A stretch of DNA of 64,000 nucleotides from an uncultured Chloroflexia bacterium. GTDB taxonomy: Bacteria > Chloroflexota > Limnocylindria > Limnocylindrales > CSP1-4. The translations under genes were made by a program, and so were the position numbers. The stretch spans positions 134,440 to 198,439 of the forward strand of contig CAVZME010000009.1 of NCBI GenBank assembly GCA_963776385.1, in the 5' to 3' direction. Numbering within the stretch: position 1 is the first letter of the stretch; each line of letters begins with the position of its first letter. The notes under the pieces were generated by a model that was not told the DNA's origin, did not search any database, and saw only the letters and a list, made by a program, of their open reading frames with translations. This document shows, one piece after another, positions 39,992-46,591 of the stretch.

Positions 39992-41084
39992 ATGGTCACC
40001 CGACGACGAGCGTCGAAGCCGCGCTCCTGGCGCGGCTGGGCCTGCCGGCCAAGGCGCAGCCCGCAGGACGTCGAGGTCGCCCACGATGGACTCGTCGACT
40101 TCCTGGATGGAGCGCCCGCCGACCTGCGAGTCTGGGCTCGGGCGCAGATCGGATCGATCGACGAGGCGTTCGCGCTGCTGTCCGATCCGACGATCGACCG
40201 CTCCGCTGTTCGCCGACCGGGCGCCCGAGCCCGGCGCGACAGCGCCGCCGGCCGCCACGGTCACGACCGCTCCCCTCCCCGATCCGCTGGACGACGACGA
40301 GGTCATCGCACGGTTCACAGCGGATCCCACGACCGCCAAGACCGCGCCGACCAGGAAGGTCCGGGCCCGAACCGCGGCCGCGACCGCCCCGGTGGCGGTG
40401 CCGGTCCGGTCCCGTCGGCCGCTGGCCCGCCGGATCGCAGTGTTCGGGGCCGTGGTCGTCGGGGTCGTCGCCATCGCCATCGCCGGCTTCAACCTCAACG
40501 GCGGGACCGGGGTCCCGGCGATCAACGGAACGCCCGCTCCGGAGGCCGCAGCGAGCGCCGGCGTCGACTCCGCGAAGGTCGCCGAGCTGATGACCGAAGA
40601 TCCAGCGCCGACCCGAAGGACATCGCCTCGCTGCAGTCGCTCGCCGACATCTACTACGGCGCGAGCGATTACGAGACCGCCGGCGCCTTCCTCGAGAAGA
40701 TCATCGCGGTCGACCCCAAGGACGTGACCGCCCGCCTCGCGCTCGGCGCGGCCCTCTTCAACCTGGGCCAGACCGACGACGCCGAGGAGCAGTGGCGCGC
40801 GGTCCTGGCCCTCGAGCCGAACAACCTCGAAGCCCACTACGACCTCGGGTTCATGTACCTGAGCCAGACCCCGCCGGACCTCGCCAAGGTCAGGGCCGAG
40901 TGGGGCAAGGTGATCGACGATCGCGCCCGACTCCGACGTCGCGAAGACCGTCGCGCACCCACCTCGCCAGCCTCGATGCCTCGCCCGCCCCCAGCGCGGC
41001 GTCCGTGCCGGCCAGCGCCGGCTCCGCGCGACGGCCCCGACCGCGCCGGCGCCGGCCGCCTCCCCGGCGCCGAGCGGTCGATGA
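39992..41084 (+). CDS. Membrane-anchored TPR protein with an N-terminal J-like helical region (at least three frame changes as sequenced)
   Basis: The reconstructed sequence is MVT.PTTSVEAALLARLGLPAKAQPQDVEVAHDGLVDFLDGAPADLRVWARAQIGSIDEAFALLSDP. The TM helix is IAVFGAVVVGVVAIAIAGF. The TPR units are LQSLADIYYGASDYETAGAFLEKIIAVDPKD, ARLALGAALFNLGQTDDAEEQWRAVLALEPNN and AHYDLGFMY. The position upstream of ccdA suggests a cytochrome-biogenesis accessory role. Confidence 0.6.
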
Positions 41085-41088
41085 CGAG

Positions 41089-41839
41089 ATGACCGCGGGC
41101 ATCGGCGTCGCGATCGTCATCGCCTTCCTCGGCGGGATCGTCTCGTTCGCCTCGCCGTGCTGCCTGCCGCTCGTCCCGGCCTACGTCGGCTACATGGTCG
41201 GGACCGACACCGAGGCGGGCATCGCCCGTCGCGCGGGCCGCCTTCTACCAGGCGCTGGCCTTCGTCGTCGGCTTCTCGGCCGTGTTCATCACGCTGTGGG
41301 CGTCGGTCGGGCTCGTCGGCTACGTCCTGCGCGACTACGTCGGGATCCTTCGCCAGCTCGGCGGCGCGATCCTCGTCTTCATGGGCCTCCACGTGGCCGG
41401 CGTCATCGACGTCTCGGTCCTCTATCGCGAGGTCCACCTCCCGGTCGGCGCCGATGGGCGGCGCCTCGATGGGCTTCGGCCAGGCCGCGCCGGCCGCCCC
41501 GAGCTACCGCCGGTCGGCCCTCCTCGGGATCGTCTTCGCGGCCGGCTGGACGCCGTGCATCGGGCCGATCCTCGGCGGGATCATCGGCCTGGCCTCGGTC
41601 AGCGCGAGCGTGCTCGAGGGCACCGTGCTGCTCGTCGCCTACGCGGCCGGGCTCGCCATCCCGTTCATCCTCGTGGCGGTCGGCGCCACCGCCGTCAGCC
41701 ACCGACTCGGCTGGCTCCGCGACCACCATCGCGGCGGTCTCCATGGTGACCGGCGCGATGCTCGTCGTGGTCGGCTTCCTGATGATCACGAACACGTTCG
41801 CCCGTCTGTCGGGCCTGTTCACGCCACTCGGTATCCTGA
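41089..41839 (+). CDS. ccdA: Cytochrome c biogenesis thiol-reductant transporter CcdA (about three frame changes as sequenced; 3-prime end uncertain)
   Basis: It carries the two conserved Cys motifs FASPCCLPLVPAYVGY and AAGWTPCIGPILGGI, plus LLVAYAAGLAIPFILVA. In the final frame there is no stop before the resB ATG. A TGA at 41837..41839 lies in a neighbouring frame. Confidence 0.8.
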
Positions 41840-41850
41840 GGAGAACCGCC

Positions 41851-44261: not shown

Positions 44262-44315
44262 TCACGGATCGAACGACACGAGCGCCCCGAGACGCCCGGG
44301 ACGCAGGAGGACGCG

Positions 44316-44931
44316 ATGGAGACGACGGCATCGATCGAAGGCACCGGCCGGGCGACGTCCCGGCGCGAGCCGGGTCAGGACGCTCGCGGTCATGGCGATC
44401 ACCGCGGTGATCATCGCGGCCGTCGTGTTCATCGTGAACCAGCCCACGGCGGCAGCCGGCGGCGTCACCGAACGTCACGCTCACCGGGCGGCGGCCGGGC
44501 CAGGCGCCGACCGTCGGCCAGCCCGCGCCGGACTTCGCGGCGACGACCGTGGACGGCCGCCGGTCAAGCTGAGCGACTTCCGGGCAAGCCGGTCTGGCTG
44601 ACCTTCGGGGCCAGCTGGTGCCAGCCGTGCCGGGCCGAGAACCCCGGACATCAAGCGCCGTGTACGAGACGCCAAAGGCGAGCGGCCTGGAGGTCCTCGC
44701 GGTCTTCATCTCCGAGGACGCGGCCGCCGTCACGTGACTACGCCGACCGCGTCGGGCTCGACCTACGACAAGGTCGCCGACCCGAACACCGACGATCGCG
44801 TCCGCAGTACCGGATCCTCGGCATCCCGTCGCACTTCTTCATCGACAGCGACGGGCGTCCTGCGGGAGATGAGGATCGGCAGCCTCGACCAGGCCGCGAT
44901 GGAAAGGGCGATCGCGGGCATCCGCCAGTGA
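44316..44931 (+). CDS. resA: Membrane-anchored thiol-disulfide oxidoreductase ResA/TlpA family (several frame changes as sequenced)
   Basis: GCAGGAGGA RBS. The TM helix is [18 protein letters not shown]. It has [38 protein letters not shown] (thioredoxin WCxxC) and [20 protein letters not shown]. Confidence 0.8.
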
Positions 44932-44934
44932 CCG

Positions 44935-46591
44935 ATGGCGGGACCGCCGCGGCGCCGAGACGCTCGACGCCTCGGCGGCATCGTCCGACAGCCGTGACGC
45001 GTCTCCGTCGGGCGGATCCGCTCGCCGATCGCCCGTCCGCTCCGGCGCGGATCCCGCATCCGAGCACTGCGCACCAGGCGTGGCCGGTTCGTCGTCCTCG
45101 TCCTCGTCGCCGGCTTCGGGGTGGCGATCGCGGTCGGGGGCGTGGCAGCCATGAGCTGGACCGAGACCGCCGACTTCTGCGGCCGCTGCCACACGATGGA
45201 CCCGGAGCTCAAGGCGTACGAGATGTCGCGCGCATCGCGAGGTCCCCTGCGCGGAGTGCCATGTCGAGCCCGGCGTCGTCGGCTGGGTCAAGGCCAAGCT
45301 CAACGGCACGCGTCAGCTCATCGGCGTCCTGACCGGGCACCTTCCCGACACCGATCCCGGCACCCGATCACGCCGATCTGCCGCCGACGAGCGCGACCTG
45401 CGTCCGCTGTCACGATCCGAAGGCGCTCGTCGCCAACGGCGGCCCGGTCAAGCTCGTCATCCAGGAGCAATTCCACGGAGGACGAGCCGAACACCAAGGA
45501 CACCATCGCCCTGGTCCTCCGGCCGGCGGGCTTCGGCGACCCCGAGCCAGGCCCGCGGGCGTGCACTGGCACATCGACTCCGAGGTGGACTACATCGCCG
45601 CCGACCCGCGCGCCCAGACCATCGACTACGTGACGATCAAGGAGGACGACGGCGCGTCGGAGGAGTTCATCGCCTCGTCCCAGGTGACCGACGTCGGGCG
45701 AACGTCCAGCCCGACATCGACCGGCTGAAGGCCGAACGGGGCCACCCGCCGGATGGACTGCATCGACTGCCACAACCGGGCCGGCCACGGCATCCCGACG
45801 CCGGACCAGGCCATCGACGACTCGCTGTCGACCGGCGCGATCGACGCAGAGACCTGCCCTACATCAAGCGCGAGGGCGTCGATCGCTGTCGAACCGCGAC
45901 TACGCCTCGGTCGGCGGATGCGGACCGGGCGATCGCCGCGCTGCGGCTCGTTCTACGAGACCCGCTACCCGCTCGTGAGCCGAGTCGCAGGCCGCCGAGG
46001 TGGACGAGGCGATCGCGGACCTCCAGCGCATCTACCGGCTGGTCGCCACGCCCGAGATGCGCGTGACCGGGACGACCTACCCGAACAACCTCGGCCACCA
46101 GTCGGCACCCGGCTGCTTCCGCTGCCACGACGGAGCGCACTACAAGGTCGAGGACGGGGTGCTCACCAAGCAGGCCATCCCGTCGTCCTGCGCGACCTGC
46201 CACACGTTCCCGCAGATCGGGTCGACCGAGTCCGGCGTCCTCATCGGCCAGCGACCGGCGAGCCACGACGATCGACTCTGGGTGTTCGACCACAAGTCGA
46301 GCGCATCCGCGCTCGATCCTGCAGGTACGGCCTGCGGCGCCTGCCACACGCGCACGTACTGCGAGAGCTGCCACAAGACCGCAGCGGTCCAGGTGAAGCA
46401 CGACGACATGATCTTCAACCACGCGGAGGTGATGAAGAAGACCGGCGCCCAGGGCGTGCGCCTACTGCCACCAGCCGGCGTACTGCTCCCAGTGCCACGC
46501 GGAGCCCGTCCTGCCGAACCCGTTCAGGACCGATCCGTCCGCCAGCCCCCCGGCTGTGCTGCCGGACCCCGTCCCGTCGCGCACGCCATGA
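44935..46591 (+). CDS. Membrane-anchored decahaem c-type cytochrome with a NapC/NirT(NrfH/CymA)-like N-terminal module (many frame changes as sequenced)
   Basis: The TM helix is FVVLVLVAGFGVAIAVGGVAAM, followed by TETADFCGRCHTMDPELKAYEMS.H..VPCAECHVEPGVVGWVKAKLNGTRQL, the NapC/NirT signature. There are ten CXXCH motifs in total: CGRCH, CAECH, CVRCH, CIDCH, CFRCH, CATCH, CGACH, CESCH, CAYCH, CSQCH. The stop is at 46589..46591. Confidence 0.8.

Follow-up and report, generated by a model that had tools for sequence, protein, structure and literature searches.

System II cytochrome c maturation, as described in Bacillus subtilis, involves CcdA, ResB/CcsB, ResC/CcsA and ResA. In the window analysed here (i.e., the whole 64,000-nucleotide stretch of DNA, from a bacterium of the Limnocylindrales), four gene products match the Pfam families that define this system once their reading frames have been corrected. 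These products retain the WWD and CXXC motifs, and their genes adjoin multihaem cytochrome genes, a likeness that refers to gene content alone.

The same genes are densely frameshifted. Pseudogene-rich, decaying genomes, such as that of Mycobacterium leprae, carry nonsense codons, larger deletions, unconstrained substitutions and lesions shared by descent; the window has many frameshifted genes in common with such genomes, but their other marks of decay are not seen in it. Residual indels in Nanopore-only assemblies are also known to fragment gene calls and to lower marker-based completeness (Sereika et al. 2022, PMC9262707; PMC12313526), and the window resembles these known errors in that one-base indels break conserved genes, and do so only in long-read assemblies. 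The classic errors of Nanopore-only assemblies are deletions in long homopolymers, whereas here 85% of all events amount to a net +1, most of the extra bases form C/G pairs with third codon positions, the events lie in clusters of 1–8 kb, and there is no enrichment of homopolymers near the frame-switch sites.

Frame breaks in six adjoining genes

Three independent methods detected the frame changes at the previously stated coordinates (Table 1). Between 40.0 and 46.6 kb, a plot of GC content at third codon positions (GC3) flips phase every 100–300 bp; a frame tracker (a Viterbi procedure on codon usage) places 50 switches of the frameshift type in the window, set against 50–60 corrections estimated in the preliminary description; and frameshift-aware protein-to-DNA alignment, guided by L032, an intact syntenic contig from a JGI metagenome, yields 9 corrections per kb in 40003–46588 (about one per 110 bp), in a hot block with sharp boundaries. 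This aligner was used instead of plain tblastn, in which intact proteins searched against the window gave tangled off-frame matches in the GC-rich DNA. The dense breaks previously reported for these 6.6 kb are real; their density is about twice the one correction per 200–300 bp then estimated.

Table 1. Positions in the window of the hot block, its genes, the clean flanks and other sites mentioned in the text.
Feature	Coordinates	Strand	Frame breaks and motifs	Basis
Hot block, six genes	40003..46588	+	60 single-base corrections (51 extra, 9 missing)	L032-guided alignment, GC3 phase, frame tracker
TPR gene ("J-like TPR" of the preliminary description)	40003..41078	+	7 corrections	
ccdA (DsbD_TM)	41089..41832	+	3 corrections; cysteines retained	
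resB	41851..43347	+	16 corrections	
resC/ccsA	43354..44258	+	9 corrections; WWD motif retained	
resA, thiol-disulfide oxidoreductase	44316..44925	+	11 corrections; WCQPC retained	
NapC/NirT-like ten-haem cytochrome	45121..46588	+	14 corrections	
PCYCGC-domain gene, left flank	39430..39972	+	0 corrections	
MerR-family gene, right flank	46605..47201	+	0 corrections	
Hydrolase and GGDEF genes	47235..49417	-	both clean	
Control stretch, glpK and neighbours	53500..56400			three-way alignment of related long-read genomes
MMPL gene, second hot block	24261..26655	+	8 switches between 24401 and 26204	frame tracker
dnaG, single frame switch	14559..14567	-	event at 14567	frame tracker

The uneven spread of the breaks, which had been noticed from the letters of the sequence, is borne out by 60 events in the block against none in its flanks. 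Alignment finds no corrections in the neighbouring PCYCGC, MerR, hydrolase, GGDEF, MarR, MFS and NHL genes (the MFS, NHL and GGDEF genes had already been called clean), and the tracker calls no frame switches between 47 and 56.8 kb. In the control stretch around glpK, another gene listed as clean, the sole coding indel across three related long-read genomes is a single 3-base one. The tracker also agrees with the earlier count of at least eight corrections in the MMPL gene and with the single hit in dnaG.

The pattern extends to the whole assembly (12 contigs, 3.85 Mb, 78% complete), in which the tracker counts 2092 frame switches, or about 0.6 per kb, with a dispersion index of 5.7 in 5-kb bins: 68 hot blocks, amounting to 4% of the sequence, carry 37% of the switches. 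The highest rates occur on the short contigs C1, C2 and C6. CpG and GC content are weak correlates of switch density (rho about 0.3), and GC content was rejected as the cause of the patchiness, because the correlation is no stronger than this and stretches that are equally GC-rich are clean.

After correction, all six proteins of the block match Pfam families above the curated cut-offs, with CcdA, ResB and ResC doing so across nearly the full profile (positions 3–216 of 219 in PF02683, 1–485 of 486 in PF05140 and 2–212 of 212 in PF01578, respectively). ResA, encoded by the most densely affected gene (18 corrections per kb), matches AhpC-TSA and Redoxin, and the TPR protein matches TPR families, with a weak match to the CcmH/CycH TPR family below the Pfam cut-off. 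CcdA, ResB, ResC and ResA are encoded together, in the same gene order as in the intact L032. As the preliminary description maintained, no motif is lost among those examined in the corrected proteins (ten CXXCH, WWD, WCQPC and the CcdA cysteines), and each of the ten CXXCH motifs of the ten-haem cytochrome lies within one residue of its place in the intact L032 protein. ResB, which has more than 600 full-length homologues, is identical to the intact L032 protein at 430 of 493 residues. Because nothing above 86% identity was found among the 5.8 billion proteins searched, an intact ResB of the same species, and with it a short-read copy, is absent from that set.

Substitutions in the corrected hot genes show purifying selection, not relaxed constraint: Mismatch to L032 by codon position, a measure of constraint of the kind suggested earlier, is 0.094, 0.069 and 0.267. 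Protein identity to L032 is similar in these genes and in their clean neighbours. Frameshift-aware alignment to L032 found no in-frame stops in the six genes with their 60 corrections, in keeping with the earlier statement that nonsense codons are lacking.

Related genomes and sequencing technology

Comparison with related genomes, also suggested beforehand, separates assemblies by the reads from which they were made. Across ccdA, resB, resC and resA (3.7 kb), none of the seven short-read assemblies of relatives has a frameshift, and the JGI contig L032 is likewise free of frameshifts at this locus. In the same count, the window has 36, and eight long-read assemblies of the Microflora Danica (MFD) catalogue have 4, 0, 3, 12, 37, 0, 32 and 32 (Mann-Whitney p = 0.004). 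Three-way alignments of related long-read genomes show that the 1-bp indels are mostly private to each genome, within the same conserved DNA. The positions nonetheless coincide between assemblies 2–4 times above chance, and the same extra base occurs in identical 21-mers of assemblies from different samples (at CcdA 122, ResB 305, ResC 193 and ResA 163). The extents of the hot blocks differ among assemblies, and, relative to the control, the hot block showed no greater similarity among the three long-read genomes.

The MFD long-read catalogue is Nanopore-only and was assembled by Flye --meta and given a single Medaka round, with no short reads used in polishing (PMC12313526). The genome that contains the window is very probably a member of this catalogue, to judge by its relatives (the genus is dominated by MFD bins), by how contiguous it is and by its low completeness.

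Origin of the extra and missing bases

We conclude, at a probability of roughly 0.9, that the frames were broken by errors in the consensus of a metagenome-assembled genome, built from Nanopore reads only, of a soil bacterium of the Limnocylindrales (Chloroflexota). Of the two readings offered in the preliminary description, assembly error has strong support (only long-read assemblies show the breaks, which are mostly private, come without stops and accompany a purifying pattern), whereas a recent burst of inactivation is not supported. If the module had been freshly inactivated, and in parallel across several related lineages, the one point in favour would be that the breaks are present in the deposited sequence and concentrated in a single functional module. 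Such inactivation is at odds with 60 frame lesions unaccompanied by a single nonsense codon, with the codon-position pattern and the ordinary level of protein identity, and with lesions that assemblies mostly do not share and that are limited to one sequencing and assembly pipeline; moreover, dnaG, taken as essential in the preliminary description, is also affected, and the same type of error recurs throughout the genome. Gene decay is a very unlikely cause, as is the wider proposition that the extra and missing bases are real, be it through parallel inactivation in several Limnocylindrales lineages or through expression by large-scale recoding. Programmed frameshifting or insertional RNA editing on such a scale would accord with corrected products that are full length and have all motifs intact, but the closest relatives do not conserve the indel positions, the indels are missing from short-read assemblies of related species, and no slippery motif is shared, so that we regard this possibility as extremely improbable. 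We know of no bacterial system that recodes its genes in this manner.

What kind of consensus error is involved may be read from the bases themselves. In 90 of 125 cases (72%), the extra base and the third-position base before it make up a C+G or G+C pair, a share for which 32% would be expected (p = 7e-20); the extra base duplicates its predecessor in only 7%. Simulated insertions give such pairs in 26% of cases when random and in 19% when placed in homopolymers. The preliminary description had assigned some events to homopolymers; given the lack of homopolymer enrichment at these sites, that explanation was dropped. Paired sites are C/G-variable among clean homologues more often than are other codons (68% versus 48%, p = 3e-4), and C/G changes make up 50–60% of natural third-position differences. 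That the pairs fall at variable third positions suggests mixed alleles at least as much as low depth.

A mechanism based on mixed alleles would run as follows. The read pile of a hot block would hold two alleles, contributed by co-occurring strains or by close relatives whose reads were cross-recruited. At sites of C/G transversion the polisher would drop neither base, since its error model charges less for one deletion in each read than for a substitution in half of the reads. Stretches without C/G variants would receive clean calls; retention of both bases at natural variants would thus account for the patchiness. Our literature search found no paper describing such a C/G-pair mechanism. Counted against it were a self-comparison of the genome, which turned up neither contigs of an alternative haplotype nor large duplicates that are nearly identical, the enrichment of four-fold degenerate codons at paired sites, which is not significant (p = 0.08), and the recurrent 21-mers, which also fit a systematic base-calling error. 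We put forward only tentatively the view that the hot blocks are artefacts marking loci with divergent alleles in co-occurring strains. Third-position divergence in the operon is below that of the flanks.

The errors might instead have arisen without any mixture of strains, by raw errors outlasting the polishing wherever reads were few. One break per 110 bp approaches the indel rate of raw reads, block boundaries are sharp, rates peak on the short contigs C1, C2 and C6, and a near-finished R10.4 genome takes about 40-fold depth (PMC9262707). Random read errors, however, are not expected to consist of third-position C/G pairs in 72% of cases, nor should they favour sites that are C/G-variable in relatives or hit the same codon of independent assemblies at 2–4 times chance; low local depth by itself is an unlikely source. 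A systematic, context-specific error of base calling or polishing (e.g., at a methylation motif or through strand-discordant calls) that adds C beside G, or the reverse, would explain why identical 21-mers carry the same extra base across samples. It also fits the weak tracking of CpG and GC by event density, and a simulation in which the other strong base is added after any C or G yields 73% pairs, equal to the observed share. An error of this kind should act at every such context, yet three genomes have clean 10-kb stretches of equal GC content, the surroundings of the sites share no visible motif, and the extents of the blocks differ between assemblies, all of which make it distinctly improbable.

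Consequences for the operon and for related genomes

With the frame breaks almost certainly errors of the consensus, the genes themselves are probably intact: The operon that runs from the TPR gene through ccdA, resB, resC and resA to the ten-haem cytochrome is, as far as its corrected sequence can tell, probably whole in the living organism. Annotators would best treat both the ten-haem cytochrome and the operon for cytochrome c maturation as functional.

Until polished, this genome and related long-read genomes from soil have unreliable gene calls, pseudogene flags and completeness values. The quality check applied to the MFD catalogue is coding density (PMC12313526); this measure would probably miss errors such as these because off-frame reading frames stay open at 70% GC. 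The C/G-pair signature suggests a particular way in which strain-oblivious polishing fails, one that, if confirmed, would be detectable and correctable from the sequence alone. And if the hot blocks do mark divergent alleles in co-occurring strains, the density of errors would amount to an indirect map of microdiversity, on which the respiratory operon would stand out as a place of frequent allele exchange.

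Reading frames in the window and across the genome

Because every frame holds long ORFs at 70% GC, the true frame was tracked by three independent methods: the phase of third-position GC along the window, a Viterbi frame tracker trained on the codon usage of the same genome (3.85 Mb in 12 contigs, 70% GC, estimated completeness 78%, with the window in contig C9), and frameshift-aware protein-to-DNA alignment guided by L032, an intact, syntenic JGI metagenome contig. All three bore out the frame changes that the preliminary description had placed at 40.0-46.6 kb, where third-position GC switches phase at 100-300 bp intervals. 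Within the window the tracker called frameshift-type switches at 50 points; eight lie in the MMPL gene (at least eight had been claimed) and, as described, only one in dnaG, at 14567, with none in 47-56.8 kb. Guided alignment required 60 corrections in the hot block at 40003-46588 (51 extra and 9 missing bases), so that the density is about twice the one per 200-300 bp originally estimated. The edges of the block fall in 39972-40048 and 46453-46605, and the PCYCGC, MerR, hydrolase, GGDEF, 105-residue protein, MarR, MFS and NHL genes needed 0 corrections, including the three (GGDEF, MFS, NHL) already thought clean.

Frame corrections in the six genes of the hot block (plus strand), from L032-guided alignment
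Gene	Coordinates	Frame corrections
TPR	40003-41078	7
ccdA	41089-41832	3
resB	41851-43347	16
resC	43354-44258	9
resA	44316-44925	11
NapC/NirT-like ten-haem cytochrome	45121-46588	14

In these six genes the guided alignment found no in-frame stops, as had been claimed for the window. Of 18 genes aligned with a guide, an upstream TPR gene (32462-33532) alone has one, together with 2 frame changes; this stop may be either a genuine lesion or a base-substitution error. Every motif whose survival had been noted is kept after correction (10 of 10 CXXCH, WWD, WCQPC and the CcdA cysteines), all six corrected products exceed the curated Pfam cut-offs for their families, and those of ccdA, resB and resC cover nearly the whole profile.

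Genome-wide, the tracker made 2092 switches (0.63 per kb of coding sequence), and their spread is uneven, as the window had suggested: counts per 5-kb bin have a dispersion index of 5.7 (maximum 33 events), and 68 hot blocks of 1-7.7 kb hold 37% of calls in 4% of the genome. GC content explains little of event density. Rates per contig span 0.09-2.2 per kb; C12 (26 kb) is nearly free of switches at 0.09, and C1, C2 and C6 (64-73 kb) have the highest rates (1.1-2.2), a contrast that may point to large differences among them in depth or origin. The worst block is the first 5.7 kb of C1, with 36 events. Self-comparison of the genome also revealed near-perfect tandem repeats (C10:90870-92641, C7:154313-155669, C11:310289-311480; offsets ~294-340 bp, 98-99% identity).

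Assembly error or recent inactivation

The preliminary description had left open whether the changes were assembly errors or a recent burst of inactivation, and the decisive comparison between artefact and decay is that of short-read with Microflora Danica loci. Relatives were found by scanning species-representative genomes with ResB of G010, which, like G005, is a Microflora Danica long-read bin labelled 'uncultured Chloroflexia', of Limnocylindrales; the same scan recovered seven short-read assemblies with the same genes. Over ccdA, resB, resC and resA, each short-read locus has 0 frameshifts, whereas eight Microflora Danica loci have 4, 0, 3, 12, 37, 0, 32 and 32, and the window has 36 (p 0.004 by source). 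Genomes of that catalogue were built with Flye --meta --nano-hq and one Medaka round, without short reads (PMC12313526), and published work has connected indels in Nanopore assemblies with frameshifts and with the loss of marker genes (PMC9262707). The window's own assembly is probably also long-read.

G010 and G005 (~84% DNA identity) align across the hot block, and they and the window's genome each carry single-base indels of their own within conserved coding sequence; around glpK, taken as a control, the three genomes show no coding indels except one of 3 bases. Hot-block extents vary among related long-read genomes: in G010 (L017 1570-2368, 5611-7150) the TPR gene, resA and the cytochrome are affected, resB and resC are clean, and ccdA is clean but for one frameshift near its start; in another (L029 87-1573) the upstream region alone is affected. 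No same-species intact copy occurred in the protein collection searched (5.8 billion proteins).

Mismatches between the corrected hot genes and L032 are 0.094, 0.069 and 0.267 by codon position, and protein identity (73-94%) is comparable with that of clean neighbours. With 60 frame lesions, 0 nonsense codons, no relaxed constraint and a single pipeline affected, decay does not fit. The frame breaks are almost certainly an artefact of assembly, ordinary in kind but marked by an unusual signature that allows diagnosis.

Nature and possible origin of the errors

Homopolymer slips were rejected: runs of at least 5 bases occur around the sites no more often than around randomly chosen positions. 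Of the 2092 events, 85% are net +1 changes. Among 125 extra bases from seven long-read genomes, 90 pair as C+G or G+C with the preceding third-position base (expected 32%), and only 9 duplicate it; simulated random and homopolymer insertions gave 26% and 19% such pairs, and inserting G behind any C, or C behind any G, gave 73%. Clean homologues show both C and G at the third position in 68% of paired sites vs. 48% of other codons (p 3e-4), and C/G differences form 50-60% of natural third-position differences. Sites coincide in independent assemblies at 2-4x chance, some with identical 21-mers.

A possible explanation, which we infer from these patterns, is that the read pile in hot blocks would hold two alleles, from co-occurring strains or reads of close relatives, and that the polisher would retain both bases at C/G transversion sites. 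Such a process would account for the insertion excess, non-homopolymer context, sharp edges and patchiness, and is consistent with the lower third-position divergence to L032 in the hot block (0.19-0.36, vs. 0.32-0.51 in the flanks; p 6e-4); however, a four-fold degenerate codon test on paired sites was not significant. Plain low read depth in hot blocks and context-specific base-calling error are also possible. The lower divergence also hints that transfer of the operon between lineages may be more recent than that of its flanks, whose more divergent genes are of similar protein conservation.

The cytochrome module

The maturation operon belongs to a larger conserved cluster (window 32462-39248, 45121-46588; L032 1-7407), syntenic with the intact JGI contig and encoding multihaem cytochromes (~478 and ~933 residues), a TPR protein, an NHL-repeat protein and a PCYCGC-domain protein. 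In most genus members the match to the query is restricted to the conserved resC/ccsA part, and the window's genome has a second, distant resC/ccsA paralogue (C5:279077-279717, 68% DNA identity). The cytochrome module should be treated as intact, and in Limnocylindrales the cluster is a candidate module for respiration or extracellular electron transfer.
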